From NCBI GenBank assembly GCA_018664825.1, contig JABJNO010000006.1, positions 15,157-79,156 of the forward strand: 64,000 nt of DNA. The letters run 5' to 3'. The DNA comes from Candidatus Parcubacteria bacterium. GTDB lineage: Bacteria > Patescibacteriota > Patescibacteriia > UBA1558 > GWA2-36-10. Position numbers and translations under genes: made by a program. How positions within the stretch are numbered: the stretch's first letter is position 1; every line of letters begins with the position of its first letter. This document shows positions 26,676 to 64,000 of the stretch, piece after piece. The notes under the pieces were generated by a model. That model searched no databases, was not told the DNA's origin, and worked only from the letters and a program-made list of their open reading frames with translations.

Positions 26676-26910
26676 AATACCTTTTTTATTATTTGGTACC
26701 ACATGGAAGTTTTTATTGTAAGGCTGTTTTATATGAAAACAAAAAAATTGGTCGCCAATGCCCCATTTCTAGGGTATTTGGTCTTACACCAATCTTAACT
26801 TACAAAGTAATGATAGCACAAAAAATCGCTTTTGTCAACCTAAGATATTTTACTTTTTATCTATAATTGATTATGTTATAATATACTGGTAATAATTAAT
26901 ACTTATATAT

Positions 26911-31320: not shown

Positions 31321-31352
31321 AAAAAGACCTCCCTTTGGAGGTCTTTTTTATT
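31321..31352 (+). terminator. Bidirectional intrinsic terminator between ahpC and the paralog array
   Basis: aaaaagacctccctttggaggtctttttta. A 9-bp stem flanked by A and T runs. Confidence 0.7.
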
Positions 31353-31944
31353 ATTCATATAATATTTTGTCTTTCAAGCCTCCTAGTCTTTTTATTCTAA
31401 AAGCTTCTTCCACCAAAGATGCATCTACATAAATATGACCATGCACAACCAAATCATCGGGCAACTCTTTTATCTTTGTTTTTTTCATATACAACACCCC
31501 TCCTACTTCCAGGCCTTTTGGCAGTTTTGTAATACCGTCATTGTCCAAGTATAGATCTCCTGTTGTAGTCAGATTGTCTGGTATTCTCGAATCAATATCT
31601 TCTGTATCTTTTAAATTTAAAAATCCCTGGACAGCTATTATTTTTATTTCTTCTCCATTTTTTATTCTAGTTTCAACTTTTACTTTTTCTCTAGGCTCAA
31701 CTTCTTCACCAATCTCCTTTGATTGAGCTATGACAGCCTCAACTGTAAACTTGTAGCCATTGATAACTCCTACTTCTTTTTTTAAAAAATCTAAACTTGG
31801 CTCCAACTGATGTTTTTTTAGTGACCTCAACAATCTAAAATCACAATCTTTTGAATCTGCCAAAAAATTGTTATCAAAATTTTGCTTACTTTCTTTGAGC
31901 TGAACAATTTCTCTTCTCAGGTTTTCACAATCTATTGCTTGCAT
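31351..31944 (-). CDS. LRR-like repeat protein, member 1 of a five-gene tandem paralog array (cytoplasmic, no signal peptide)
   Basis: C-terminal triple about-21-aa repeat IPDNLTTTGDLYL / ITKLPKGLEVGGVLYM / IKELPDDLVVHGHIYV. N-terminus MQAIDCENLR. DNA segments are shared with its neighbours. Confidence 0.55.
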   Translation of the reverse strand: MQAIDCENLRREIVQLKESKQNFDNNFLADSKDCDFRLLRSLKKHQLEPSLDFLKKEVGVINGYKFTVEAVIAQSKEIGEEVEPREKVKVETRIKNGEEIKIIAVQGFLNLKDTEDIDSRIPDNLTTTGDLYLDNDGITKLPKGLEVGGVLYMKKTKIKELPDDLVVHGHIYVDASLVEEAFRIKRLGGLKDKILYE

Positions 31945-31953
31945 AATTTTATC

Positions 31954-32529
31954 TTAATCTTCAAGGCCTACGTGTACTGAACCATATATGCCATTTATTC
32001 TAGTCACCTCATCCGTCAAAATGGGATCAATATAAATATCTCCATGTACTATCAAATCATCTGGTAGTTTTTTTATCTTGGTACGGTTGATATGCAGATT
32101 ACCTCCCACTACCAGTCCTCTTGGTAATTTTGTAATCTTTGTACCCTTAAAATTTAAATATTCTTTCACTTCTAAATTGTTGGGTATTTTTGAGTCTATA
32201 TCATTCATCATATCTAAGACTAATCCAATTTTTATGACAGTAATCTTTATACTAGCACCATCTCTATTTCTATACTTAAAATCTAATGACTTTTCTATAT
32301 CTCCTGGATTAAGCCTCATATCAATGGCCTCAATTGCAAACCTATACCCTTTAATAGCTTCCACTTCTGACCTCAAAGATTCTAAACGTTTTTCTAGGCT
32401 AGTTTTCCATAATCTGAGATCAACAAAATCCCACTTCTCTGAAGTGCCTCTACACCTTTCATCAAAACCATCTTTGTCCTCTTTGGTACGATGTATAAAT
32501 TTCCTCGTTTTTTCACAATCTATTGGCAT
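31954..32529 (-). CDS. LRR-like repeat protein, array member 2
   Basis: MPIDCEKTRK ... KEDKDGFD ... WDFVDLRLW ... KGYRF; C-terminus ITKLPRGLVVGGNLHINRTKIKKLPDDLIVHGDIYID. Confidence 0.55.
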   Translation of the reverse strand: MPIDCEKTRKFIHRTKEDKDGFDERCRGTSEKWDFVDLRLWKTSLEKRLESLRSEVEAIKGYRFAIEAIDMRLNPGDIEKSLDFKYRNRDGASIKITVIKIGLVLDMMNDIDSKIPNNLEVKEYLNFKGTKITKLPRGLVVGGNLHINRTKIKKLPDDLIVHGDIYIDPILTDEVTRINGIYGSVHVGLED

Positions 32530-32537
32530 GTTTTTAT

Positions 32538-33128
32538 TTATCCCATTAAATGTATATCTCCTCGTAAATTTCCTGCTTTACGTAATCGAACTACCTCGTC
32601 TCTCAAACTTTCGTCAAGATAAATATCTCCGTGAACCATCAAATCGTCTGGTAATTTTTTTATTTTGCTGTTATTGATATGCAGATTACCTCCCACTACC
32701 AAGCCTTTTGGTAATTCCGTAATATCTGAACCTTGTAAAAATATATTTTCCATCACAGTCATGTTTTCCGGTATTTTTCCATCCAAATTTTCTACTCTCT
32801 TTAAATTCAAAATATCTTTTACTACTATTGTTCTAATCTTTTCTCCACCCCTTAGCCCGCCCTCTACAAGTACTTTTTTTCTTGCTCCCTCAAAATCCTT
32901 GGGCTCACCTACACTAGCCATGACTACACTCACTATAAATTTATAACCTTTAACAAATTTTAACTCTCCCCTTAAAAAATCCAAACGCTGGCCCAGGGCA
33001 ATCCTCCATTGCCTCAAAGCAACGAAATCCCAATCGGCCACTTCACCAATACAAGATTTATCAAACCATCTTTTATCTTCCTTGGCGTGCTCTATGGTTA
33101 TTCTTATTTTTTCACAATCTATTATCAT
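32538..33128 (-). CDS. LRR-like repeat protein, array member 3
   Basis: MIIDCEKIRI ... KEDKRWFD ... WDFVALRQW ... KGYKF; C-terminus ITELPKGLVVGGNLHINNSKIKKLPDDLMVHGDIYLD. Identical 29-nt DNA stretch shared with member 2 (attgatatgcagattacctcccactacca). Confidence 0.55.
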   Translation of the reverse strand: MIIDCEKIRITIEHAKEDKRWFDKSCIGEVADWDFVALRQWRIALGQRLDFLRGELKFVKGYKFIVSVVMASVGEPKDFEGARKKVLVEGGLRGGEKIRTIVVKDILNLKRVENLDGKIPENMTVMENIFLQGSDITELPKGLVVGGNLHINNSKIKKLPDDLMVHGDIYLDESLRDEVVRLRKAGNLRGDIHLMG

Positions 33129-33130
33129 AT

Positions 33131-33721
33131 TTATGCTGCTACAAAGAGACTACGTATATTACCCTTTTTCTTTAGCTTGGTTATTTTATCTCCCAATAAA
33201 GGTAGTTGTTTTTGATTAATAACCAACTCTCCCTCAACTACAAGATCATCTGGAATATCCGTAATAAGAGTACCCCTAATATCCATATTACCACTTACTA
33301 GTAGATCACGAGGTATTTCTCTTACATTAAGATCTTTGATAAAAAAATTTCCATCTATTGTCCAGTCACCCGGAATCCTTACTGTCTTTTCACCAAATAT
33401 ATCTTTTCCGTTTTCTGTAAAATCCAAACCTCCTTTGTAGAGCATTCTTCCGTGTCTTTTAAATTCCATGAACTCTACCATAGATAAGAGATCTTCTCTA
33501 TCAGAACTTCTGATAAATTCCATCATATCAACCCCAATTACTTCTCCTTTGAGTTTTTCCAATGCTTCACTTATATTTATTTTTTTTTCTCTCAACTTGC
33601 CAAGATCCAAAGAATCATCGATAGCATCAAATTGATCCACAAAACCAGCAAAGGCTGGCTTTGTTACCTTTAGTAAATATCTCCATTGTTCACATTCTAC
33701 TTTGTTTTTATTTTTAAACAT
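33131..33721 (-). CDS. LRR-like repeat protein, array member 4 (divergent N-terminus)
   Basis: C-terminus IPGDWTIDGNFFIKDLNVREIPRDLLVSGNMDIRGTLITDIPDDLVVEGELVIN retains the repeat. Confidence 0.5.
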   Translation of the reverse strand: MFKNKNKVECEQWRYLLKVTKPAFAGFVDQFDAIDDSLDLGKLREKKINISEALEKLKGEVIGVDMMEFIRSSDREDLLSMVEFMEFKRHGRMLYKGGLDFTENGKDIFGEKTVRIPGDWTIDGNFFIKDLNVREIPRDLLVSGNMDIRGTLITDIPDDLVVEGELVINQKQLPLLGDKITKLKKKGNIRSLFVAA

Positions 33722-33725
33722 ACTT

Positions 33726-34319
33726 TTAATACAACATGCTTAATTTGCCACCTATCTGACCTTTGTCTTTTAATCTTTGCATCAGCTCTCTACGAGGATC
33801 ATTGGGATCAGAAAAAGTCAGATAACAATCTCCCTTGATGATAATATCTTCTGGAATATAATATCTATCGTCTTTATCAAATGAAAAATTACCATTCACT
33901 ACTAAACCTTTTGGTAAAAAACTAATATCTGTATTATTAATATTAAAATCCCCCTCAACAACCAAATTCTTTGGTAAAAATTTGATTGGCCTTCTAGATA
34001 AATCCAAATCTTCTTGATATATTATCTTTCTTTTTTCAAAACTAATTCCAAATCGTGGTAAAAAATATTTTCTATCATCTTCCGAACCTACCATGGCTAC
34101 CAATCTCCGTATTTGCTTTTGAGCAGGAACCATAAAAAGGGTTTCTTCAATATTTTTTTTCAACAAGCCAAAAGAATAGGTAGTATTTCCAATAGTAGCA
34201 AAATTTCTTGTTTTTATTGCATCTGGATATTGATCAGCAAAGTCAACTACAAAGCCCTTCATAGCTCCTAGGTCTCTCCTCAGTTCTTCACAATATTTTT
34301 TTGGTGTTTCTTGGCTCAT
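33726..34319 (-). CDS. LRR-like repeat protein, array member 5 (divergent N-terminus), first gene of the array
   Basis: C-terminus IKFLPKNLVVEGDFNINNTDISFLPKGLVVNGNFSFDKDDRYYIPEDIIIKGDCYL. Confidence 0.5.
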   Translation of the reverse strand: MSQETPKKYCEELRRDLGAMKGFVVDFADQYPDAIKTRNFATIGNTTYSFGLLKKNIEETLFMVPAQKQIRRLVAMVGSEDDRKYFLPRFGISFEKRKIIYQEDLDLSRRPIKFLPKNLVVEGDFNINNTDISFLPKGLVVNGNFSFDKDDRYYIPEDIIIKGDCYLTFSDPNDPRRELMQRLKDKGQIGGKLSMLY

Positions 34320-41356: not shown

Positions 41357-41974
41357 ATGGAAATTTTAAACAACCCCTGGATAATAACTATTGGAAGTGG
41401 CATAATTGTCGCTATATTTTCTTTTTTTATCCTAAGAAAAAAATCTGAGCCTATGCCTGCTAAAAAATTAACACAGGCAGGAAAACACAATCAATCTATT
41501 AATATTGATATAAAAGATGGGGACAACAAAATAAGTATCAACGAACGAGATAAAAATAGGAAAAAACATGACAACCAAATGGATATAGATAATCTAAAAA
41601 AAATAACAAACATACTATTTGTTGATGATGATCCCAATTACATGATTGTCAAAATATTAAAAAAGCAAGGCTGGATAAATACAAAAATTGTTACTGATAT
41701 CATTGATCCGGATAAATTTAATGACGTACATGTATTTTTTGTTGATATAAATGGGGTCGGTAAAAAAATGCACCTCAAAGATGAAGGCATGGGTTTAGCC
41801 TTGCTCTTAAAAGATAAGTTTGTAGATAAAAAGGTTATTTTATACTCTTCTGACACAAATAGAGATATGGCCCATCCAGTCTTCAAAAAAATAGATGGAA
41901 TTTTACCTGCAGATGCTCAAATTTATCAATTTACAAATATACTTGAACAATTTGCAAAAGAGATAAAAATTTAA
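41357..41974 (+). CDS. Membrane-anchored protein with a degenerate receiver (REC)-like domain
   Basis: N-terminal TM helix. NILFVDDDPNYMIVKILKKQGW ... VHVFFVDINGVG ... KVILYSSD follows the beta-alpha pattern of CheY-like domains (acidic pocket DDD, candidate phospho-Asp in FFVD). GC about 25%. Confidence 0.35.
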   Translation: MEILNNPWIITIGSGIIVAIFSFFILRKKSEPMPAKKLTQAGKHNQSINIDIKDGDNKISINERDKNRKKHDNQMDIDNLKKITNILFVDDDPNYMIVKILKKQGWINTKIVTDIIDPDKFNDVHVFFVDINGVGKKMHLKDEGMGLALLLKDKFVDKKVILYSSDTNRDMAHPVFKKIDGILPADAQIYQFTNILEQFAKEIKI

Positions 41975-41976
41975 AA

Positions 41977-42996
41977 ATGTTTTACTATCATCTACTCGAC
42001 AATAACAATGAACTAGTTTTATCTAATCTTCCTCCAGAATTAAAAAAATACTTTACAAAATGTAAAGATAAGAATAAGCTATCACGTTTTAATGGGCAAA
42101 AATGCAGAGAGGGTAAATTAGCTGATGGTACTATTGGAACTGCATATATACTCACAACAGATACTAATGAGGTTAATAGTTCAAAAATCTTCCAAGACAA
42201 ACTAGCATTATATTTAAAATTTATTCAAGAAATAATAAATATAAAAAATGATACTGTAAACAAAATATTACATGAAATAACCAAAATTAACGGCCATTGT
42301 TTACTGGAATTATTTGATATAATACCAAATGATATAAGTAAAACTAAAACTTATAAAAAACAAATTTTAAAAGTAGAAAAACAAATTATAGCCAAAACCA
42401 AGGATACAGCAAAAAGCTTATTTAGCCTACACAGAAAAATATTACACATAAAGACCACTTGCTCTAATTTAAAACTTTTATTTAGCAAAAAAATAACCGT
42501 AGATAAAGAAAGGCACGATATAGCAAACGCAATTAAACCTAGTTTACATGTTTATATTCCACACTTACAAGAAAAAGGTGTACACATAAATGTAAAAGAA
42601 AAAAATACAAAGAATATAAACATGAATTTTGAGTACTTCGAAGCTGCCATGGTACCTCTTTTAGATAATACACTTAAATATATCTTGCATGACTCTACTC
42701 TTCATATTTATTTTAAAAACTCCGAAGAGGGTTTCATAATAAACTTTGATATGATAAGCATGGCCATAACAAAAGAGGAAGAAGAAGATATTATGAAATA
42801 TGGGTTTTCTGGAATAAACGCAAAAAAGAATCAAAAAAATGGTAAAGGCATTGGAATGACTACTATAAAAGATTCATTAAAGGTTAATAATGCTAAAATA
42901 AAGTTTGAAAATAATGTTAATGGAAGAAGAGAAAAAAGATATAAAAACACCACCTATGAAAGGAATATATTTAAAATAATTTTTCTGGATCAGTAA
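41977..42996 (+). CDS. Soluble histidine-kinase-like ATPase (HATPase_c N-box and G2-box present)
   Basis: N-box MVPLLDNTLKYILH. G2-box GKGIGMTTIKD. Candidate H-box HEITKINGH. Starts 3 nt after the preceding stop. Extremely AT-rich. Confidence 0.4.
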   Translation: MFYYHLLDNNNELVLSNLPPELKKYFTKCKDKNKLSRFNGQKCREGKLADGTIGTAYILTTDTNEVNSSKIFQDKLALYLKFIQEIINIKNDTVNKILHEITKINGHCLLELFDIIPNDISKTKTYKKQILKVEKQIIAKTKDTAKSLFSLHRKILHIKTTCSNLKLLFSKKITVDKERHDIANAIKPSLHVYIPHLQEKGVHINVKEKNTKNINMNFEYFEAAMVPLLDNTLKYILHDSTLHIYFKNSEEGFIINFDMISMAITKEEEEDIMKYGFSGINAKKNQKNGKGIGMTTIKDSLKVNNAKIKFENNVNGRREKRYKNTTYERNIFKIIFLDQ

Positions 42997-43290
42997 TTTT
43001 TTATTAAAATCCGAGCTTATAAAGTTTGAATAAAATTTTACAGCAAAATGAAATGTCCTCCGCCAAAAGCGGAGGAATTTTTATTTGTTTGAGGACGTAG
43101 GACGAGTTATAAAAATTAATGGAGTTTTGCTGATACAAATTTATGAAAAGTTTATCTAGCGAGCCGCTTTTTTCTGCTACTTTTTTGGCGGGCAAAAAAG
43201 TGGCGAAAGAAACAAAAAAAAGTACAAGAAGAAAAGCTAGCTAAAGAAAAAAAATAATGATAATATAAAAGCATAAATTAAATTAAAACT

Positions 43291-44028
43291 ATGAAACTAT
43301 TTAAAAACCAAAAAGGATTTAATGACGTAATCACCCTCGCCATTATAGGTGGTATAATTGGCGCCTTATTTATAACAGGCACTTATATATGGCAAGAGAT
43401 GAAGCAGGGCGACAATTTTATAGTCTACAAAATAAACAAAGACTCCGAACCAGTTGAAAAAAAACTAGGAGATTTTATAGAATTTAGCATCCTGGATCTA
43501 GATGTAGAGGCTACCAAAAAATACATCCAAGAAAATAAAACATACAGCCAAACTTATAATATAAATAATGTAAGAAAAGTCATCCATAAAGACTTGGATG
43601 GAGATAGCATAAATGAAGCTATAGTTGAGTTTGACACTGACCCTTATAAGACAAGGGATCTATTGGAGCAACTTAGTAGAAAAATAATCAGACCCGCACA
43701 TGCAGGTGGCTGGCCTACAGCAAGTATCTTTGGAGTATTCAAATATAATACAACAGATAAAATATGGCGCCCAATATACATGGACTATGTTGCTATTGGT
43801 GTTTGGGGTTGTGCGGATGAAGTAGAAGATTGCTATGATGATATAAAAGGAAATAAAATTCCCGAAATAGTAAGAATAGAAATATTAAACAAACAATACG
43901 GAGTGACTCCTGAAAAACCACTAAAGACTGATATCCTGATTGAGAAACAATCTTGTAGCGGAACCACACCCTGCAAATACATACTACATTTTGAAAATTT
44001 AGAATTTACAAAAGAAGAAATAGAATAA
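43291..44028 (+). CDS. Membrane-anchored hypothetical protein
   Basis: N-terminal TM helix LAIIGGIIGALFITGTYIW. No recognised domain. Confidence 0.4.
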   Translation: MKLFKNQKGFNDVITLAIIGGIIGALFITGTYIWQEMKQGDNFIVYKINKDSEPVEKKLGDFIEFSILDLDVEATKKYIQENKTYSQTYNINNVRKVIHKDLDGDSINEAIVEFDTDPYKTRDLLEQLSRKIIRPAHAGGWPTASIFGVFKYNTTDKIWRPIYMDYVAIGVWGCADEVEDCYDDIKGNKIPEIVRIEILNKQYGVTPEKPLKTDILIEKQSCSGTTPCKYILHFENLEFTKEEIE

Positions 44029-44101
44029 AATAATACAATAACCAAAATAGACAAATAAACCCAAAAAAGCTAAAATAGACACATAAAATTAATTTAAAAC
44101 T

Positions 44102-44824
44102 ATGGCTGAAAAAACAAACAAATTTAAAGACTGCTCTTTCTGTTCTGAAAAGATCCTAGAAAGTGCAACAAAGTGTAAACATTGCGGAGAATGGCTAAAT
44201 AATACAGTGCCCCGTCCAGGTGTGACAATGCATGTCAGTGATAAAAACAAGAAAATCGGAATATTTTGGCTAGTCGCTCCCACCCTATCCATGGTAATGG
44301 TTTTGATGTTGTATGCTATTGCTAAATTTGCCTTTGGAGTAAATAACCCAGAAGAAATGACAACAACAATGGGAATAATCAATGTTGTCCTAGGATTCAT
44401 GGGTATAATATCTACCTTTGGAATACTCGCCGGAATACCAATAGGCATTGTCTTCCTAACCAAAAAAACTCCCGTAGACCCGAATATAAAATTTGACTCT
44501 CGTAGTGGTAAAGGTGATCTGTCAGAAATACCAGCCGAAATTCATGGCTGGAGCTGGGGAGCCGCAGGACTTACTTGGCTTTGGGGAATTAGCAATGGTG
44601 TCTGGCTTTCTCTTTTGATGTTTATCCCTTATTTTGGATTGATCTGGTGGATTGTCTTGGGTATAAAAGGAAACGAGTGGGCCTGGAAAGCAAGGCCATG
44701 GACAAGTACCGCTGAATTTATTGCCCATCAAAACAAATGGAAAATATGGGGAATTATAGTTTTCTTTTTACCATTACTGATGCTACTTATAAATATTCTC
44801 GTAGTAATAGCCGCTTTTTCATAA
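44102..44824 (+). CDS. Zinc-ribbon-fronted polytopic membrane protein
   Basis: CSFCSEKILESATKCKHCGEW zinc ribbon, then about 5 TM helices. Confidence 0.45.
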   Translation: MAEKTNKFKDCSFCSEKILESATKCKHCGEWLNNTVPRPGVTMHVSDKNKKIGIFWLVAPTLSMVMVLMLYAIAKFAFGVNNPEEMTTTMGIINVVLGFMGIISTFGILAGIPIGIVFLTKKTPVDPNIKFDSRSGKGDLSEIPAEIHGWSWGAAGLTWLWGISNGVWLSLLMFIPYFGLIWWIVLGIKGNEWAWKARPWTSTAEFIAHQNKWKIWGIIVFFLPLLMLLINILVVIAAFS

Positions 44825-44842
44825 AAAATCAATTTAAAATAA

Positions 44843-44876
44843 AAACCCCCTATTTTCATAGGGGGTTATTTTTTTA
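44843..44876 (+). terminator. Bidirectional terminator (aaccccct-attttcat-agggggtt)
   Basis: 8-bp stem flanked by A and T runs. Marks the left edge of a GC-rich island. Confidence 0.65.
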
Positions 44877-45149
44877 TACTTTTTTCAAAGTTTCGAGAAT
44901 ACGCTGAGGGACAAAACAGATTTCGTCGGCTTGGCTACGCACCCAAAGCACGGGGTCGCTGTGATTTACACAATCACATCGCATACCTTCGGGTATAGGC
45001 GCTGCTCCCAGCACAGTAGCTGGCTTGTCCATGTGCTCCTCAGGAGCAATCTGATCGCCGGCTTCAAAGCCAAACTGACTACAAGCCTCAGTATCGACCT
45101 CGATTGTTCCCCCGCCATCTTGCAGGGTGATTGTTTGCATCTTCGGCAT
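44874..45149 (-). CDS. Hypothetical protein in GC-rich island
   Basis: 91-aa ORF, GC about 52%. Contains CDCVNH. Third gene of a three-gene minus-strand set. Confidence 0.4.
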   Translation of the reverse strand: MPKMQTITLQDGGGTIEVDTEACSQFGFEAGDQIAPEEHMDKPATVLGAAPIPEGMRCDCVNHSDPVLWVRSQADEICFVPQRILETLKKV

Positions 45150-45172
45150 TACAAAACCTCCGTTTGTTTTGG

Positions 45173-45361
45173 TTACTTCTTTTTGGGTGGATAAACCGCG
45201 TTGTAACTTTTACGACCATTCTCATAAAAAACACCACGCCTCGCAATCAACAAAGCACCTTGAGCCTCTGGATTGAGATGCTCAAAAGCCACTTGGCTAG
45301 TTGGAATGTCCTTGTGCTGAGGACGCAGATCTTCTCGGTCAAACTCTACCTTCATAATCAA
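45173..45361 (-). CDS. Hypothetical small protein in GC-rich island
   Basis: 62 aa. Overlaps the upstream gene by 4 nt. Confidence 0.35.
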   Translation of the reverse strand: MIMKVEFDREDLRPQHKDIPTSQVAFEHLNPEAQGALLIARRGVFYENGRKSYNAVYPPKKK

Positions 45362-45567
45362 GCCTCTTCCTTTGGGTAGCTCTCAAGAATCCTCGCCCAG
45401 CCCCAATGGCTAGGATTTTCTAAAACAATATCCTCAATAGTCTCTCTTAGGGTGGGTGGTTCCTCTTTGAGATCGATGGTAAATCCAAGGGCAAACAAGC
45501 AAAGCAAGGCAACCCAGGAAATGACGAATCTCTTTGAACTCATATTATTCTCCTTGTTAGGGTACAA
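45358..45567 (-). CDS. Hypothetical small secreted/membrane protein in GC-rich island
   Basis: N-terminal hydrophobic segment FVISWVALLCLFALGF. Confidence 0.35.
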   Translation of the reverse strand: MYPNKENNMSSKRFVISWVALLCLFALGFTIDLKEEPPTLRETIEDIVLENPSHWGWARILESYPKEEA

Positions 45568-45732
45568 AAAACTACATTAGACAATACAATATTTCATGTA
45601 TTTTGTCAATATATAGCCTAAAAAAGCCTTTCTTTTGTAAAAAACAAGAAAAAACTTGATAAAAGGTTAAATCTATTATAATCTACCCTTAGTCCTTTAA
45701 AACTCATAGGAAAATAAACAAAGGAGATAAAG

Positions 45733-45894
45733 ATGGGCAATAAAGGAGCCTCCCCCGAATTTGTAAGGCAAGCCCGCGAAATCTCTGACCGCGCCAACAT
45801 GCGTCAAGCTGGCTATGGCCCTGGCGGACCTTCTCCTAGGCCTCCAATCCAAAGATCGCTCTGGCGTAAATTTCTCGACAGACTCTTTTCCTAA
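45733..45894 (+). CDS. Small protein (53 aa) with strong SD, not in the ORF track
   Basis: aaaggagataaagATG. Sequence MGNKGASPEFVRQAREISDRANMRQAGYGPGGPSPRPPIQRSLWRKFLDRLFS, hand-translated. A TTGATA...TATAAT promoter lies about 55 nt upstream. Followed by the terminator aagagggaac-tacg-gttccctctt + T6. The track's antisense ORF 45697..45900 is probably spurious. Confidence 0.45.
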   Translation: MGNKGASPEFVRQAREISDRANMRQAGYGPGGPSPRPPIQRSLWRKFLDRLFS

Positions 45895-45984
45895 ACACAC
45901 CCAAAGAGGGAACTACGGTTCCCTCTTTTTTATTACCCTCAAAAATGCTAAAATAAGTACGTAAATAAAATAAAAACACTCAAA

Positions 45985-47643
45985 ATGCCAAAACAAAAAA
46001 TAAAATTCTTGTTTTTGATAATTACTGGGTATTTTTTTATTTTTGCCAAGCCAGCCAAGGCTGTCATACCGCCTGATTTTATATTTAGCATTACTGCCCA
46101 AATAGTCCAATTTTTTTCAATCATAATGATATTTTTGGCTACTATTTTAGGAACTTTGGTTCAATTTTTTAAAACGAAATACTACACTATCAGACACAAA
46201 AAAACTATCCTGACCTTGATAATAATCGGTATTGTCTTGGTCTCTTTTGTTTCTTCCTACTTTTATGCTACCCACAAACAAGAAGTCGAATATCAAAAAT
46301 GGCTAAACGAAAGTGAAAAATACAATATAGTAGAAATGGAGAACGAAGACATGGACTCTGATGGTGATGGACTGACAGATCTAGAAGAAGTCACCTACGG
46401 CACAAATCCTCACAACGCAGACACTGACGGAGACTCCTACTCAGACGGAGAAGAAGTCGCCAATGGCTATGATCCCCTGGGAAGTGGCAAGACCAAAGAA
46501 AATATAGAAAAAGGAGATGCAAACGATCAGCTAGCAATCGGTGCTCAAGCAAATGAAAATATCGATACTTCCGACAATACATTTGTATCCAATGTAGAGA
46601 TCACTGATGCTTCTACTAGTTTTATAAATGAGTATTATAGCAACATGGCCAACAGCAAACTAACCGAGGCCTATGAAATGTCAAAAAAATCTGTCAGCTA
46701 CTCAACATTTGAAAGCTGGTATCTAGAAACTACCAAAATTACTATTGATAAACTCATCAGAATAGACGAAACAAAATCATCCATAGAGCTCACTTTGTTT
46801 GAAGGAGAAAAATTTACTAGATATGGTGTCTTGATGGCTTTGGAGTTGAGAAATGAAATCCCACAAAGAGTAGCTAGCTCCAATGTAAAAATACTAGCCG
46901 AAGGAACTATCCAAAATCAAATTGTATCTATAGACGAACAAAAACTTTCTGATGAATATGCTTTTTTTGATGAACATAAAAACAAAAATCTCCTCTTCGG
47001 CAACCAAGAGCTACAAGACTTGATATCTAGTAGCGCCCAAGACTATATCATCTTGGATGCCAGAGAAGATATCGAATATGAAAATGGATATTTTCCTGCT
47101 AGTGAACATATACGCTTTGCAGATCTCAAGGCCGGACAATGGATAGAAATACCAGATGATAAATTTGTCTATGTCCTCTGCTGGTCAGGTATCCGTGGCA
47201 AAGAAGTAGCCGAATTTTTGAGAACCAAAAAAATAGTTGCCTCATACCTAGAAGAAGGAGCCAATGGCTGGGTAGAATTTGGTGGACACTGGATAGGTAG
47301 TATAAAATTTGGAGCACAATACAACGAATCAAGATATCAAATAGTATTTGATACTGATGATGTCAGACAAAAAGTACGAGATGGTGCCTTTTTGGTAGAT
47401 ACTAGAGAGCCCTACAAATTTAAACAAACCCACATAACAGGCAGTGTAAATATACCTATCATGTACACTCCTACTGTAAATATCGAAAATGTTTTTGCCC
47501 AAGTGCCAGCCAACAGCCAAATAATCACTGTCTGCGATGGTTATGTAAATTGTTTTGATGCAAAAATAACTGGCGTAGAACTAGAAAGACGTGGACATCA
47601 GTTTTTGGGAAGATACAATAAACCCTGGGAATATGAAAATTAA
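45985..47643 (+). CDS. Membrane-anchored protein with TSP3-like Ca-binding module and two C-terminal rhodanese domains
   Basis: Signal/TM N-terminus. DSDGDGLTDLEEVTYGTNPHNADTDGDSYSDGEEVANGYDPLGSG. Rhodanese 1 active-site loop LCWSGIRGKE. Rhodanese 2 ITVCDGYVNC. Confidence 0.55.
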   Translation: MPKQKIKFLFLIITGYFFIFAKPAKAVIPPDFIFSITAQIVQFFSIIMIFLATILGTLVQFFKTKYYTIRHKKTILTLIIIGIVLVSFVSSYFYATHKQEVEYQKWLNESEKYNIVEMENEDMDSDGDGLTDLEEVTYGTNPHNADTDGDSYSDGEEVANGYDPLGSGKTKENIEKGDANDQLAIGAQANENIDTSDNTFVSNVEITDASTSFINEYYSNMANSKLTEAYEMSKKSVSYSTFESWYLETTKITIDKLIRIDETKSSIELTLFEGEKFTRYGVLMALELRNEIPQRVASSNVKILAEGTIQNQIVSIDEQKLSDEYAFFDEHKNKNLLFGNQELQDLISSSAQDYIILDAREDIEYENGYFPASEHIRFADLKAGQWIEIPDDKFVYVLCWSGIRGKEVAEFLRTKKIVASYLEEGANGWVEFGGHWIGSIKFGAQYNESRYQIVFDTDDVRQKVRDGAFLVDTREPYKFKQTHITGSVNIPIMYTPTVNIENVFAQVPANSQIITVCDGYVNCFDAKITGVELERRGHQFLGRYNKPWEYEN

Positions 47644-52213: not shown

Positions 52214-52229
52214 ATTAAAATCTAGGGTT
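52206..52229 (+). terminator. Bidirectional terminator (aaccctagatt-aa-aatctagggtt)
   Basis: Perfect 11-bp palindromic stem between convergent genes. Confidence 0.65.
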
Positions 52230-52236
52230 TTGTTTA

Positions 52237-52578
52237 TTAACAGGCTTTTTCCCTCTGCCACATGATAAAAAAATATGTGAGCATAAACAAAAAGAAACAG
52301 GGAAAAATAAAGCCAACTGCTGTGATTTTGGCAATGGCAAAATGAATCACCAGGTACAAGGCCGCTAATAAAATAGCCGCTCCCGACCAATTGATACGCT
52401 TGCCTATAATACCTCCAGCCACAATGCCAGCAATCAGCCCAAAGGCAAACCCTATCAAACAGCCCAAATAAGCTCTCTGCTGATCTTGCTCTCCTAGGGC
52501 TTCAACCCAAGAAAAAAAGAATCTTTGCACAATCAGACTAGCTGATGAGACCAAGATGATAGGAATCAGGTTACGCAT
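52237..52578 (-). CDS. Integral membrane protein (3-4 TM), hypothetical; strong SD
   Basis: aaaagggagataatcATG. A TTGACA -35 lies upstream. Confidence 0.45.
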   Translation of the reverse strand: MRNLIPIILVSSASLIVQRFFFSWVEALGEQDQQRAYLGCLIGFAFGLIAGIVAGGIIGKRINWSGAAILLAALYLVIHFAIAKITAVGFIFPCFFLFMLTYFFIMWQREKAC

Positions 52579-52695
52579 GATTATCTCCCTTTTTTAAAAG
52601 ATCAAAGTTTGAATTTAACGATTGATATTATTATATATAATCATCTTTGTCAATAAATAAACCCCCTAGATAAAAATATAGGGGGTTTTATAATA

Positions 52696-52775
52696 AGGGA
52701 GCAGGAACTCACCGGAAGAGCTAGGCTCCTCACGAACTCCGTAGAGCCCGCTGGGCGAGAGAGCCCCTACTCCAC
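52696..52775 (+). ncRNA. GC-rich highly structured element of about 80 nt (candidate small RNA or repeat); strand uncertain
   Basis: GGGAGCAGGAACUCACCGGAAGAGCUAGGCUCC forms nested helices (GGAGC/GCUCC and CUC/GAG around ACCGGAA). Then CUCCGUAGAG and GGGCGAGAGAGCCC hairpins. A long-range GGAGCAGG/CCUACUCC pairing is possible. About 65% GC in AT-rich surroundings. No family recognised. Confidence 0.25.
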
Positions 52776-52780
52776 ACTGA

Positions 52781-53149
52781 TTATTCTTTACTATCAGCCA
52801 AATTGACCTCAGGCCAACTCAAGACTTCTTCGGGAATTGGACTCCCCCCTTCTCTTGCTTGCCTAGCCAAAATCCGACGTAGATGAAAATTTTGGCAAGC
52901 TATCATATTGTGCATATGGCAAATATTGCTACTGCGAAAAACTCCCAAGATGCCAGGACAATCAGAATAATGTATCCGACCACTATTTTCACCTATGCGA
53001 AAAGGTGGAAAACTACCCAATGTCCACGTACCTCTTTCTTCATTTACTTTTACATTGCGCGGACACTTGCCAGTGACTTTGATTTCATTACCTTCTCTAA
53101 TTAGAAAAAGTAATCCTGACCATTTTTTTCTGGTTTTTTTCATAGTCAT
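52781..53149 (-). CDS. Cys/His-rich small protein, possible zinc-dependent nuclease-like (HNH/Vsr-like motif uncertain)
   Basis: SDCPGILGVFRSSNICHMHNMIACQNFHLRR. GC-richer. N-terminal basic segment. Confidence 0.3.
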   Translation of the reverse strand: MTMKKTRKKWSGLLFLIREGNEIKVTGKCPRNVKVNEERGTWTLGSFPPFRIGENSGRIHYSDCPGILGVFRSSNICHMHNMIACQNFHLRRILARQAREGGSPIPEEVLSWPEVNLADSKE

Positions 53150-53322
53150 CTTATACTCCTTATTTTGGGTTTAAAAGTACTATCTCAATAATCAAAAATT
53201 ACTACTTAACATAACAATTGTCAAATATCATTGACAAAATACCTTCAAAATACTAATATTTAGTGTAATTCACCTAGGTAAAAATCCTATAAAATGTACC
53301 CTAAAACAAAAGAGGTTTCCAA

Positions 53323-53703
53323 ATGAACAACAAAGTGCGCCGTTTTCTTTTGATCTTGTTATTGATCCTCATCTACATCCCTGTCCGTGGTATCGACAAC
53401 ATCAACGGTGATCTCCGATTTATAGGCTTCTGCCCCAACTGTACGGATTCCTATTATTGGAAAGAATCCAGCTCTCTGACTTATTGGAAAGCCGAAGATC
53501 AAACTTCGTTTGGCCACACATCCTCAGCAGTGATGATCTGTAAAAAATGTATGGATGACCCCGAGGGGCTGAGTCCCAACCGAATCGGCTTTATGCTCTG
53601 GTGGCCACTTGGAATAGGTGGCTGGGACAAAGAAGGCACAGACATGGTCAAGGATGCTGTACGTCAGTACAAACAAGGTGACGCAAGTCTTCGGTCAATC
53701 TAA
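53323..53703 (+). CDS. Secreted/membrane-anchored zinc-ribbon protein (CxxC...CxxC), hypothetical
   Basis: SD caaaagaggtttccaaATG. Motifs FCPNCTD and ICKKCMDDPEG. N-terminal hydrophobic helix. Confidence 0.4.
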   Translation: MNNKVRRFLLILLLILIYIPVRGIDNINGDLRFIGFCPNCTDSYYWKESSSLTYWKAEDQTSFGHTSSAVMICKKCMDDPEGLSPNRIGFMLWWPLGIGGWDKEGTDMVKDAVRQYKQGDASLRSI

Positions 53704-53750
53704 AGCCCAAAACAAACACACCGATTTCTCCCCAACCGAAAGGAAAGACT

Positions 53751-53993
53751 ATGTGGTTGATACGATTCAATCAATGGTACGACCAACTATCCCCCGATCC
53801 TCGTTTCATTTTATTCCTGCTCTTCATCGCCATAATCGGCATTGGGTCGATTAGCTTTGGTCTGAATCTCAATCAGCCCAAGCTAGCTCTATTTGGCACT
53901 GTCTGGATTGCCATCTTTGGTGGCCAAAGAGCGATTTACTTCCTTCTCAATCGAAGAGTTGTTCGTTCCAGAGTCCAAAAACCTAGAGGTTAA
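53751..53993 (+). CDS. Small two-TM membrane protein
   Basis: 80 aa. Followed by a terminator (ccctcg...cggggg + T-run). Confidence 0.35.
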   Translation: MWLIRFNQWYDQLSPDPRFILFLLFIAIIGIGSISFGLNLNQPKLALFGTVWIAIFGGQRAIYFLLNRRVVRSRVQKPRG

Positions 53994-54066
53994 ACCTCAC
54001 TCACCCTCGTTTTTTTAAACGGGGGTTTTATTTTACAAAAATATCTAAAAGGATTAAGATTATCTT

Positions 54067-57197: not shown

Positions 57198-57340
57198 TTA
57201 GAAAAATATACATTCAAAAAACCCACTAGCTCATTTAGTGGGTTTTGTTATTATGATTGACAAAAGTCTTCAAATACACTTAAATACAAGCAGAATGATC
57301 TTTTTAATGAGTAAAAACCATAAACCAAGGAGAGTTTATA

Positions 57341-57637
57341 GTGAAAAGCAATGGAGAAACCGTCCAAATGACAAGGTCTGATGGAAAGCTAGGAGTTGAG
57401 TTTAACCCCCCTGAAGAATTGCAAAGATTTCTAGATTTTGTCATAAAATCCGAAGACCCCTACATGGAGCACTACCCTCAAATCCTCCGAAATGGAGGCA
57501 TCATTCCTTTGGACGATCCTGAATTTATGAAAATGTTGGATAGAAAAGGAATTACTCCTTATACTATCCCCAACACAATGCGAGCTGACTATTTGGTAGC
57601 CTTTCAAAAAAATAAGGCCTCCCAGTCAACTACATAA
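57341..57637 (+). CDS. Hypothetical protein, GTG start with SD
   Basis: ccaaggagagtttataGTG. 98 aa. Followed by the terminator aaaagtctaatcttttaagattagacttttt. Confidence 0.4.
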   Translation: MKSNGETVQMTRSDGKLGVEFNPPEELQRFLDFVIKSEDPYMEHYPQILRNGGIIPLDDPEFMKMLDRKGITPYTIPNTMRADYLVAFQKNKASQSTT

Positions 57638-57706
57638 AAGTCTAATCTTTTAAGATTAGACTTTTTTATTTAAAATAAAAAAAGCGGAGTTGTCTCCGCT
57701 CTTGTC

Positions 57707-58018
57707 TCACGAAAAAAAAGTAGGGAATTGACCTTTGATTAGATTGGCCAAAGCTATTGAAACCACAAACATCGGTAAAAAAAATACTGTGAACCGCCTG
57801 GGATATTCAACTCTTCTTTTTAGAAAACCCCAAAATATACTCAGGCCAAAAAACATAATAACATTATTCCAAAATCCAGTATGATCATAATGATTTGCCC
57901 AGAGCATATGAGTAATAAACACCAATGTAAATAAGATCGTCACCAGGGTGACATAAACCGTATTGTTTGGTTTGATTTTCACGTCTACCTCCTTGTTCCC
58001 TAAGTTTGTAACGTACAA
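57707..58018 (-). CDS. Small integral membrane protein (3 TM)
   Basis: Followed on the minus strand by the terminator agcggagacaactccgct + T7. The overlapping track ORF 57885..58124 is rejected. Confidence 0.45.
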   Translation of the reverse strand: MYVTNLGNKEVDVKIKPNNTVYVTLVTILFTLVFITHMLWANHYDHTGFWNNVIMFFGLSIFWGFLKRRVEYPRRFTVFFLPMFVVSIALANLIKGQFPTFFS

Positions 58019-58124
58019 AAGAACGCTTATTTTTACTATATATTTGAATATTTGTCAATAATAGGGTAAAATACAAGCTAAAGAGGGCCCCCTGGGCCAA
58101 CAATGATATTATTAAAAAAATCAT

Positions 58125-58397
58125 ATGGATGCTGATGACAAAAAGAAAATAAAAGATTATTTAAACAGTCCTGATACTGAACTTTTAAATATTATCCGTA
58201 GCCAATATGACACTCCCAATGCAGACCTCGCCAAATGGACTCTCAATTATAGGCTCTACGATACTATGGTGAGCCTCAACCATAGTATAAAAGCAAACAG
58301 TAAAAATGCTGCTCGTTATAATAGATATATGTTTTGGATTGCCATCTTCATGGCCACAATGACTGCTCTTAATATGATATTTATTATTTCTCTATAA
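58125..58397 (+). CDS. Hypothetical protein with C-terminal TM helix
   Basis: 90 aa. Followed by the terminator aaacccccgttgttttaacgggggttttttg. Confidence 0.4.
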   Translation: MDADDKKKIKDYLNSPDTELLNIIRSQYDTPNADLAKWTLNYRLYDTMVSLNHSIKANSKNAARYNRYMFWIAIFMATMTALNMIFIISL

Positions 58398-58428
58398 AAT
58401 AAATTACAAAAAATAAACCCCCGTTGTT

Positions 58429-58608
58429 TTAACGGGGGTTTTTTGAATACCTCTTCAGAGATTGCATAAACTTTTTCCGCTTCTGCGGACAAATTTCAGT
58501 ATCTCCGATTTCACGAATATGATTTCTGATCCCTATGATCATAAAGGTAAAAATACCTACAAAAATCAAACCAGCGACTACAGCCACGATGATTTCTTTG
58601 ATTTCCAT
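58429..58608 (-). CDS. Small membrane protein (59 aa) with textbook sigma70 promoter and SD; not in track
   Basis: TTGACA-17-TATAGT upstream, then aaaaaggagaccaagATG. Protein MEIKEIIVAVVAGLIFVGIFTFMIIGIRNHIREIGDTEICPQKRKKFMQSLKRYSKNPR, hand-translated. Its stop lies within the downstream terminator hairpin. Confidence 0.4.
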   Translation of the reverse strand: MEIKEIIVAVVAGLIFVGIFTFMIIGIRNHIREIGDTEICPQKRKKFMQSLKRYSKNPR

Positions 58609-58769
58609 CTTGGTCTCCTTTTTCCAGAGTTTTAAGGTTCAAAAATATTCTAAATACTATATCATAAAAATCTGTTTTTGTCAACAGATTCGACAAGCTC
58701 ACTACAAGTAAATAAAAACCCACCTCAATCTTTTGAAGATATATTGGTGGGTTATAGTCGGGGGTACAT

Positions 58770-59060
58770 CTACAGTTGACCTCCTGTGTAGAGCCTGGTA
58801 CTAATCCAGACATAAAAGACAACCGAGCCTATGATAAGTAAGCACGTAACCACCGCTACCGGAAAACTCAATCGACTAAGATTGGGATAATCTTTACGAT
58901 TATAGACTTCCAGTCTACTAATAAACAGGGAAAGTACTCCCACAGCAGTACCAGCGATTAGCTTGGACTTTACACCAGGCATAACGGCCACCAACAGCAC
59001 CATCAGGACAAGGGCCACAACGGCCCAGACAAAGGGGTTATACAACAGCTTTTTCATCAC
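58770..59060 (-). CDS. Integral membrane protein (3 TM) with SD
   Basis: gggaaggaagaggtgATG. GC about 50%. Followed on the minus strand by the terminator cccacc...ggtggg + T5. Confidence 0.45.
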   Translation of the reverse strand: MMKKLLYNPFVWAVVALVLMVLLVAVMPGVKSKLIAGTAVGVLSLFISRLEVYNRKDYPNLSRLSFPVAVVTCLLIIGSVVFYVWISTRLYTGGQL

Positions 59061-59087
59061 CTCTTCCTTCCCGGGGGATACGGGATT

Positions 59088-59222
59088 TTAAGCTACCTTG
59101 ACTATGGACATTAGTAGAAGAGCCAAAATGCAAAACAATAAACCCAGATCAAGCCAGTAGGCCTTGTTTGTTTCTAATGGCTCTTCTTCTCGACGATCAC
59201 GTCCTCTTTTTCCACTCATTGC
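59088..59222 (-). CDS. Small membrane protein (about 44 aa) with SD and TTGACA-17-TATATT promoter
   Basis: gggaggaatggcaATG. Protein MSGKRGRDRREEEPLETNKAYWLDLGLLFCILALLLMSIVKVA. The track's longer version (to 59333) includes the promoter region and is unlikely. Confidence 0.4.
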   Translation of the reverse strand, partial: AMSGKRGRDRREEEPLETNKAYWLDLGLLFCILALLLMSIVKVA

Positions 59223-59289
59223 CATTCCTCCCTGTTCAATGTAAAATAAAGGGTACAAAAACATCTTAATATAATTTATTATATCAGTT

Positions 59290-63295: not shown

Positions 63296-63402
63296 CTAAA
63301 ATAACCTTTTCTACAGGGTTGTTTTTAATTTGACAGCTTTGGAGATTAGCCCTAAGATAAATACGATTTGTTGTACCCTACGACTCAAAAAGGAGAGAGG
63401 AA

Positions 63403-63633
63403 GTGAAAAACACTCGTGTCATAATCGTCACCAATGGTGAACCACTACCCACAGAAATCACTCAACAACTAGAAGCTGGCTACCAGGAGGTAATTGTTAC
63501 TGAAGACATGGATATTGGAGATGTTCTCCGAGATTGCTTTTTTACTAGGATTGGCTATTATAGCCCTCTACACCGACAGTTTGTTGGTGAGCTACTCAGC
63601 CACCTAAAAAGACACAATACAAGGCCTTCCTAA
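63403..63633 (+). CDS. Hypothetical small protein, GTG start with SD
   Basis: aaaggagagaggaaGTG. 76 aa. GC about 48%. Confidence 0.35.
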   Translation: MKNTRVIIVTNGEPLPTEITQQLEAGYQEVIVTEDMDIGDVLRDCFFTRIGYYSPLHRQFVGELLSHLKRHNTRPS

Positions 63634-63767
63634 AGCCCCAATCTATCAAGATTGGGGCTTTTATTGTATAATATTGACATACTATCCCAATATTGGTAGT
63701 ATAAACAATCGTTTCGTTTCGTACTTTTCATTCACATCTCAAAAGGAGGTGAAATAATGAGTTCCTA

Positions 63768-64000
63768 CTCACACGGACAGATGATCTGTCACATTAAAGA
63801 CAAAGAACCTACTCTTCTCACTACTCTACAAGGAGCCTTCAACCAAGACGTTACGTCTTTTATAAGACATATTATTGAAGTTGATCAAAATATCTCTCTG
63901 GGTATCCCCCAAAGAAAATTCAAAGGCTTTGTTTTTGACCTCTCTGAGGTCACTGCCGTAGGTAGAGAGCTAGAAGTTTTTTTGGCAACCTTATCTCAAC
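63768..64000 (+). CDS. Hypothetical protein, 3'-partial (runs off window end), strong SD
   Basis: aaaggaggtgaaataATG. The ORF MSSYSHGQMICHIKDKEPTLL... stays open to the window end. Not in the track. Confidence 0.4.

Follow-up and report, generated by a model that had tools for sequence, protein, structure and literature searches.

Within a 64,000-nucleotide (nt) stretch of the genome of Candidatus Parcubacteria bacterium (GenBank assembly GCA_018664825.1, contig JABJNO010000006.1, positions 15,157 to 79,156 of the forward strand; hereinafter, the window), small genes that combine Shine-Dalgarno (SD) sites with consensus promoters form a class distinct from the backbone genes. One group of such genes, a block of about 1.1 kb located between the backbone gene p240 and a rhodanese-domain gene, encodes proteins of 91, 60, 61 and 53 amino acids (aa), here denoted g91, g60, g61 and g53, and had been described in an earlier note as an island set apart from the rest of the sequence. 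That singular status is not sustained: at least four equivalent clusters are present in the window, and the SD and promoter features define a gene class rather than a single island. The explanation that we rate best, although only tentatively and with somewhat less than even confidence, is that the block is an accessory cassette laterally gained from a gene pool specific to Patescibacteria; in this it would resemble the units known as morons in phages (see below).

Two classes of genes in the window

Pairing with the anti-SD sequence was measured upstream of 71 curated gene starts. An SD site was found in 15 of these genes, 12 of which encode proteins of 43-126 aa and are grouped in four clusters; two further cluster genes, g60 included, are just under the SD cut-off. 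Among the 53 genes of at least 129 aa, only three have an SD-like match, and the remaining 50 are preceded by A/T-rich leaders such as aaattaaaactATG. The SD-led genes are both smaller and richer in G+C (Mann-Whitney P ~4e-5 and ~8e-5, respectively), and the distance between the SD site and the start codon is 5-8 nt, also for the internal genes of operons. The distribution of promoters follows the same division. Exact TTGACA-N16-18-TAnnnT sites occur nine times in the window; six stand 38-64 nt upstream of SD-led units, all six with a 17-nt spacer, and none of the nine is upstream of a backbone gene. Thus, the proposition of the earlier note that backbone genes have neither feature is borne out, with 50 of the 53 longer genes lacking an SD site and no exact promoter preceding any backbone gene.

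The SD-led clusters and the units that belong to them are as follows.

44874-45894: first cluster (the block)
52237-53993: second cluster
52215-54030: region of the second cluster, SD-led genes that encode a 113-aa protein with four membrane-like segments, a basic, Cys/His-rich protein of 122 aa, and proteins of 126 and 80 aa
53323-53703: the 126-aa gene of the second cluster, with a signal segment and four Cys
57341-59219: third cluster
63403-63633: fourth cluster
57240-59280 and 63300-64000: regions of the third and fourth clusters, SD-led genes for proteins of 98, 91, 59, 95, 43 and 76 aa
from 63758: additional SD-led unit, a gene that exits the window

All clusters are bordered by G+C-rich hairpins that carry T-runs, and all possess a TTGACA promoter. 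The second cluster, with its hairpin borders, is organized around a divergent TTGTCAA...ATTGACAAA promoter region, and its proteins match no Pfam family; the third and fourth clusters each possess a TTGACA-N17 promoter and a hairpin terminator. The sequence ATTGACAAA occurs five times in the window, every copy being located at the promoter of an SD-led unit. Membrane-like (transmembrane-like) segments were recognized in 8 of the 14 cluster proteins examined. One gene among those of the third and fourth clusters (58125-58397, 90 aa) has a low G+C content and no SD site.

The clusters also have in common a short motif in the leaders. TGTACCCT is found five times in the window, with 1.28 hits expected, and four of the five copies lie in sense-strand leaders between promoter and SD site. 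For the shorter TACCCT, 6 of the 27 copies in the window fall in such leader windows, which make up 0.8% of the sequence (P ~6e-8). The leader copies belong to four different units, with a related motif in a further leader; the motif may be a binding site for a protein, an RNA element or a site of processing.

45559-45566, minus strand: (TTTT)TGTACCCT(AA), leader copy
53295-53302, plus strand: (TTTT)TGTACCCT(AA), leader copy
59250-59257, minus strand: (TTTT)TGTACCCT(AA), leader copy
63372-63379, plus strand: (TTTT)TGTACCCT(AA), leader copy
45683-45689, plus strand: related CTACCCT, after the g53 promoter

In the loci of distant relatives, the copies of TGTACCCT are located in unrelated contexts.

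Outside the clusters, an isolated TTGACA-17-TATCAT promoter is found on the minus strand at 26700-26850, followed by a leader with ATACCCT and a possible open reading frame (ORF) for a 47-aa membrane protein; this ORF has no clear SD site. The whole is placed between backbone genes, in an intergenic stretch of 1.2 kb with low G+C content, and could represent a further unit or a small RNA.

The block, its signals and its proteins

The block consists of a three-gene operon on the minus strand and one divergent gene on the plus strand, separated by a 189-bp intergenic promoter region. Its features and immediate flanks, in the order of the window, are the following.

stop at 44824, plus strand: backbone gene p240, 240 aa, convergent with the minus-strand operon
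44844-44867, both strands: left hairpin, putative bidirectional intrinsic terminator, 10-bp stem with an A-run on the 5' side and a T-run on the 3' side
44874-45149, minus strand: g91, 91 aa, acidic, pI 4.5; SD GGAGG 7 nt from ATG (CCTCC on the plus strand, 45157-45161)
45173-45355, minus strand: g60, 60 aa, basic, pI 9.5; SD AGGAAGAGG 7 nt from ATG
45358-45543, minus strand: g61, 61 aa, first gene of the operon; SD AAGGAG 6 nt from ATG
45559-45566, minus strand: TGTACCCT, in the untranslated leader of the operon that begins with g61
45581-45609, minus strand: promoter-like site of the g61-g60-g91 operon, ATTGACAAA (-35 region), 17 nt, TATTGT
45656-45682, plus strand: promoter-like site of g53, TTGATA, 15 nt, TATAAT, followed by CTACCCTTAG
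45721-45726, plus strand: SD site AAGGAG of g53, 6 nt 5' of ATG
45733-45894, plus strand: g53, 53 aa, very basic, pI 11.5, Gly/Pro-rich
45903-45928, plus strand: right hairpin, putative intrinsic terminator for g53, with a stem of 11 bp and TTTTTTATTA after it
start at 45985: rhodanese-domain gene, 552 aa, right flank of the block

The two strong hairpins that had been noticed at the borders are both present and score as intrinsic terminators. The left one folds with -17.1 kcal/mol on the plus strand and -18.9 kcal/mol on the minus strand (z -3.7 and -3.1 against shuffled sequence), and because an A-run precedes and a T-run follows its stem, it can act on both strands; it is the predicted terminator of both p240 and the g61-g60-g91 operon. 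The right hairpin (-17.8 kcal/mol, z -5.5 against shuffled sequence) has a T-run on the plus strand only, just past the g53 stop codon. When the block and the whole window were searched against Rfam, only four tRNAs passed the gathering thresholds; within the block, the matches were far below gathering scores and lay mostly over the left hairpin. An alternative reading of the hairpins as integron attC sites or as miniature inverted-repeat transposable elements was rejected, since the two stems differ in sequence and have the appearance of ordinary terminators.

The SD sites claimed for the four small genes are all in place, 6-7 nt from ATG. The gene boundaries on the minus strand had to be revised in part: the 91-aa gene stands as proposed, but the supposed overlapping 62-aa and 69-aa ORFs start at upstream TTG codons, and the SD-led ATG codons yield proteins of 60 and 61 aa that do not overlap, with g60 starting 2 nt past the g61 stop codon and a gap of 23 nt between g60 and g91. 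Independent public gene calls on identical contigs likewise give 61, 60 and 53 aa, and 91 aa for g91 (88 aa in some contigs). The ORF antisense to g53 had been considered likely wrong, and we concur: g53 is preferred over either of two antisense ORFs by its SD site, by the T-run of the plus-strand terminator and by most public calls, that is, those on most of the contigs that cover g53. The TTGATA...TATAAT promoter ascribed to g53 can be recognized, but its 15-nt spacer is suboptimal, so that it is missing from the listing of the consensus promoter scan; both promoters of the block are sequence matches. Judging by the SD sites, the coupled starts, the oriented terminators and the conservation of the g91/g60 family, the four genes look real.

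The assertion that none of the four proteins resembles a known family stands as far as databases of named families are concerned: neither the four block proteins nor the fusion protein P0005 (see below) have a credible match in Pfam, NCBIfam, PHROGs or PADLOC, and other cassette proteins searched in the same way gave no credible match either. As a statement on orphan status, it holds for g53 and g61 but not for g91 and g60, which have homologues. A word-indexed homology search with g91 and g60 retrieved self matches only; an exhaustive HMMER search with g91 yielded 18 cluster representatives among 1.84 billion. Twelve of these 18 are short proteins of 88-193 aa (mostly 88-97 aa) with 30-58% identity to g91, and the stand-alone proteins of 88-97 aa align over the full length, with phmmer E-values from 6e-29 to 6e-4. 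The other six are long proteins that showed no domain in common and look spurious. Where the source is named, the carriers of the family are Parcubacteria or the "Patescibacteria group". This rare family is characterized by the motifs F-x-V-D..A-C..F-G-F..G-D and V-x-G-V-A-P..L-W-V..V-C-F; in two alignments (A2 and A3), C23, G27, G48, A50, P51, C60, W69 and C78, including three cysteines, are invariant or nearly so. The commonest form is a stand-alone protein with the conserved N-terminus M-[PS]-K-M.

The relationship between g91 and g60 is clarified by P0005, a 145-aa protein encoded in the metagenome-assembled genome (MAG) GCA_018669975.1, which is a continuous g60-g91 fusion: residues 1-60 match g60 with 63% identity, and the remainder matches g91 with 45% identity. 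More generally, the counterparts of g91 and g60 in other genomes show 46-63% identity. Because the two proteins are fused in P0005, they would be expected to act together, and we infer that they interact as two parts of one functional unit. A search of the Protein Data Bank (PDB) sequences with P0005 gave no match. The analysis thus defines a new family of small proteins, that of g91, to which g60 is linked by gene fusion.

With an alignment of 12 sequences, AlphaFold produced a confident model of g91 as a small barrel (pLDDT 87.5, pTM 0.79); the single-sequence model was unusable (pLDDT 52). By this model, g91 is predicted to be an SH3/Tudor-like beta-barrel with cysteines, a prediction that pertains to the fold class and not to the function. 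The best PDB matches of the model, the UvrD C-terminal Tudor domain, the RNA-polymerase-interacting domain of Mfd and the MscS beta domain, are weak (E 0.04 or worse, in the range 0.04-0.4; TM-scores 0.4-0.54; 12-21% identity), and the matches to predicted structures of viral proteins are equally weak. An assignment of g91 to the AbrB-type swapped-hairpin regulators was rejected, given that the profile matches (E 0.6-0.9) do not reach significance and that a barrel is predicted as the fold.

According to the hydropathy profile, residues 3-21 of g61 form a hydrophobic segment at the N-terminus, a signal or an anchor, whereas the tail of the protein is acidic, which suggests a small acidic protein that is membrane-anchored or secreted; no homologue of g61 was detected. 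g53 is a very basic peptide that is probably disordered, and a homologue was absent from every one of the smaller searches run with it, the PDB sequence search included.

The genes that flank the block in the window are cellular and include those for ribonucleotide reductase (RNR), rhodanese, PPDK, Maf, pyruvate:ferredoxin oxidoreductase (POR), IscS, RNase J, an ABC transporter and PilT-like proteins. A sequence identical to the window is present in the NCBI MAG GCA_018670855.1, and the label given by NCBI to the g60 product is "Candidatus Parcubacteria bacterium". The four genes upstream of the block (41357-44824; 205, 339, 245 and 240 aa) are lineage-specific as well, without a credible Pfam family; they have a backbone-like low G+C content (26-39%) and leaders devoid of SD sites, unlike the cassette genes. 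As these genes are orphans and yet backbone-like, orphan status is not the mark that separates the cassette genes. Farther upstream, on the minus strand at 31351-34319, there are five tandem paralogues of 191-197 aa that are 21-46% identical to each other and have in common a repeat-like C-terminal half (LPDDLVVHGDIY...).

Origin of the block

Under the lateral-gain interpretation, the block would be a self-contained accessory-gene cassette composed of two divergent transcription units. The unit on the minus strand would be driven by a near-consensus sigma-70-type promoter (ATTGACAAA-17-TATTGT) and would consist of a short leader with UGUACCCU and three SD-led, close-set genes, ending at the bidirectional hairpin that it has in common with the convergent backbone gene; in the unit on the plus strand, g53 would be preceded by the TTGATA-15-TATAAT promoter and an SD site and followed by a terminator of its own. 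The cassette would be one of at least four clusters inserted between the housekeeping genes of this Parcubacteria genome and would have been added to the backbone from a pool of genes exchanged and reshuffled among related Patescibacteria. This interpretation is rated best because the synonymous sites deviate, the neighbourhoods are mosaic, related loci lack the block and a sister MAG has ordinary genes in its SD-led class.

In composition, the block (44877-45902) has a G+C content of 44.4%, compared to 36.7% for the window, with 51, 45, 46 and 54% for the individual genes and 25% for the intergenic promoter region. The G+C content of about 50-55% originally assigned to the block is thus reached by g91 and g53 only. 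Against sliding windows, the z-score of the block is ~2, and only the region 1-1700 is richer in G+C. The value expected from the amino-acid sequences of the block under backbone codon usage is 43.5%, so that approximately half of the excess is due to the composition of the proteins. The other half is synonymous: the pooled G+C content at third codon positions (GC3) is 0.464 versus 0.303 expected (z = 6, on a scale on which the backbone genes themselves spread with a standard deviation of 2 z-units). Apart from the clusters, the first 1500 nt of the window, cut by the window start, are its GC-richest part (54-57%) and contain ORFs of 181 and 265 aa, the second of which is SD-led; these have only weak, sub-gathering Pfam matches, and their GC3 of 0.49-0.59 versus ~0.30 expected (z 7-8.5) is a deviation far above that of the block.

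The neighbourhoods of the genes differ between genomes. Homologues of g91 are found in differing surroundings, mostly alone, are usually SD-led and richer in G+C than their locus and, where this can be seen, are followed by a hairpin terminator. In two loci (L070 and L071), a homologue 62% identical to g91 is divergent from a homologue 60% identical to the second-cluster gene 53323-53703, and the two genes are separated by a TTGTCAA...ATTGACAAA promoter region that resembles the one in the second cluster of the window. Genes of different window cassettes thus adjoin elsewhere, which points to reshuffling of the gene set. The sister MAG GCA_018669975.1 has the same two gene classes as the window; NhaA and UPRTase are among its SD-led genes of higher G+C content. 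On its contig JABHSK010000002.1 (L056, 3640-5500; L061, 4740-5330), two g91 paralogues are located ~7.5 kb apart, near the RNR gene. The first is the g60-g91 fusion, which closes an SD-led operon of small membrane proteins, and the second (in L061) lies downstream of a 55-aa membrane protein, with AAGGAGG on both; the leaders near the two paralogues contain TTTGTAAC...AACCAAGGAGG, similar to TTTGTACCCTAACAAGGAG of the window.

At the locus itself, 40 related loci from GTDB genomes and JGI metagenomes, with identity of up to 69%, retain only the rhodanese-PPDK pair; in all 40, neither the block nor its four upstream genes are found beside this pair. For the rhodanese gene, the identity to counterparts in MAGs of Magasanikiibacteriota and Uhrbacteria amounts to 65-67%. 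A 12-nt exact direct repeat, TAAAATAAAAAC, brackets the block at 44835-44846 and 45966-45977, 1131 nt apart, and excision of one copy together with the intervening DNA would fuse p240 to a typical backbone leader of the rhodanese gene.

Several observations weigh against lateral gain. The presence/absence polymorphism that had been suggested as a check was not seen: all contigs of the one population sampled that reach the block, recognized by an identical p240 or rhodanese protein, carry it. Two differences in L052, a contig with 1.1x coverage, are probably errors, and the other contigs match the window at 99.86-100% identity. No empty site was found, the closest relatives being 65-69% identical, with the upstream synteny lost too, and hence too distant to reveal one, and neither an integrase, nor a transposase, nor a convincing target duplication was detected at the block. 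The repeat TAAAATAAAAAC was rejected as a target-site duplication because it belongs to a common A-tract type with 19 near-copies in the window versus ~3 expected. A blastn search of phage and plasmid collections with the block gave no match, neither the g91 profile nor the 126-aa protein of the second cluster found a relative when viral contigs were scanned, and the block proteins had no credible PHROG hit. Furthermore, approximately half of the GC excess stems from amino-acid composition, mobile DNA is usually AT-richer, not GC-richer, than the host, and the promoter and leader motif common to all units fit a native regulon equally well.

Such a regulon is a serious contender, to which we give appreciable but lower credence, at roughly one part in three. 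Under this view, lineage-specific genes for small, often membrane, proteins would be inherited vertically and subject to a distinct expression regime in which strong consensus promoters go together with initiation by way of the SD site and with a leader element (UGUACCCU) to which a single regulator binds; the GC-richer mRNAs would depend on the SD site, being unable to use the route of the A/U-rich unstructured leaders of the backbone, and the higher GC3 would reflect selection rather than foreign origin. The recurrence of the same promoter and leader motifs at several units, the optimal SD spacing of 5-8 nt even on internal operon genes, the fixed and identical state of the block in all sampled contigs and the lack of mobility genes are all consistent with this scenario, and so is the finding that, of six host contexts examined (locus G+C content 38 to 50%), five have a g91 homologue richer in G+C than the locus. 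However, the absence of the units from all related loci examined and the neighbour combinations that vary among genomes speak against it. The backbone genes for RNR and POR, which are expected to be highly expressed, lack SD sites, so that SD use is not simply tied to the level of expression, and the occurrence of ordinary genes, NhaA and UPRTase, in the SD-led class of the sister MAG is more like acquisition.

The possibility that the block is a module of the toxin-antitoxin, defence or bacteriocin-immunity type, with g61 as the membrane protein, g60/g91 as a DNA- or protein-binding partner and g53 as a divergent regulator-like peptide, appears improbable. It would account for the small, tightly coupled genes, the divergent promoter region, the hydrophobic segment of g61 and the weak profile matches of g91 to AbrB-type regulators. 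Yet these matches are not significant and g91 is predicted to adopt an SH3/Tudor-type barrel, the g91 homologues are mostly solitary, and the database searches described above, PADLOC among them, returned nothing credible for the four proteins and P0005. Finally, chance reading frames or an assembly artefact, to which the small size of the ORFs and the lack of detected homologues of g53 and g61 might point, are very improbable, considering that the same sequence was assembled independently in ENA, JGI, NCBI and Logan contigs (33 collection blocks list g91), that SD sites are found at 6-7 nt from all four starts, that g91 and g60 are conserved elsewhere and that the terminators are correctly oriented.

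Comparison with known systems

Translation is SD-independent in lineages in which the anti-SD sequence is lacking or hidden, such as Bacteroidota, which also have SD-regulated genes. In Parcubacteria, the CCUCCU anti-SD motif is reported to be missing in about half of the group (Tsurumaki et al., 2022, PMC9297842). The window genome resembles the SD-independent lineages in the A/T-rich, SD-less leaders of its backbone genes and differs from them in that a minority class of small genes has strong, optimally spaced SD sites. We know of no earlier description of such a two-class SD pattern in Patescibacteria. It is conceivable, although in our judgment rather doubtful, that this genome combines two expression regimes, one for housekeeping genes without SD sites or consensus promoters and the other for small-protein cassettes with perfect TTGACA-N17 promoters, UGUACCCU and an optimally spaced SD site. 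In that case, a small-protein regulon might be translated selectively and under separate control on ribosomes that make no other use of the anti-SD sequence, in a manner comparable to the SD-regulated genes of Bacteroidota, or else the cassettes might constitute a previously unnoticed, exchangeable pool specific to Patescibacteria. The pattern raises the question whether the ribosomes of such lineages still use SD pairing and for which genes. The genomes of the candidate phyla radiation (CPR)/Patescibacteria are rich in small genes of unknown function, from which the SD site, the promoter and the leader motif single out a small, often membrane-associated subset; these features offer a sequence-based means of telling genes that are newly gained or under special regulation apart from the backbone in uncultured symbionts.

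At the level of protein structure, the RNA-polymerase-interacting barrels of the UvrD C-terminus and Mfd are the best matches of the g91 model (TM 0.47-0.54). This fold is very common, and the barrels in question are without the three conserved cysteines of g91; no functional inference is justified by the similarity.

In integrons, a gene cassette consists of a promoterless ORF and an attC site with a GTTRRRY core. In contrast, the units of the block have promoters of their own, no conserved core was seen in them, and the hairpins are plain G+C stems with T-runs whose sequences are unlike each other.

A closer parallel is provided by the phage morons (Cumby et al., 2012, PMC3594210), which are transcription units in their own right that have been added to prophages between conserved genes. 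Like the morons, the block has, as far as sequence matches can tell, its own sigma-70-type promoters and its own factor-independent terminators, deviates in composition from its surroundings (G+C content 44.4% versus 36.7% for the window; GC3 0.464 versus 0.303 expected) and consists of small genes of unknown function that are located between co-oriented backbone genes and occur in neighbour combinations that vary among genomes. The differences are that the block resides in a cellular Parcubacteria chromosome (with RNR, PPDK, Maf, POR and IscS) and not in a prophage, that no empty site was encountered in a related genome, and that the block is bipartite and divergent, with a leader motif in common with other cassettes.

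The block can be compared also with ORFan genomic islets, which are small and horizontally acquired: in both cases, a short deviant stretch of lineage-restricted genes is located between conserved genes. The block differs from these in its shift to a higher G+C content, and islets of this kind occur here every few kb, with promoter and leader motifs in common.

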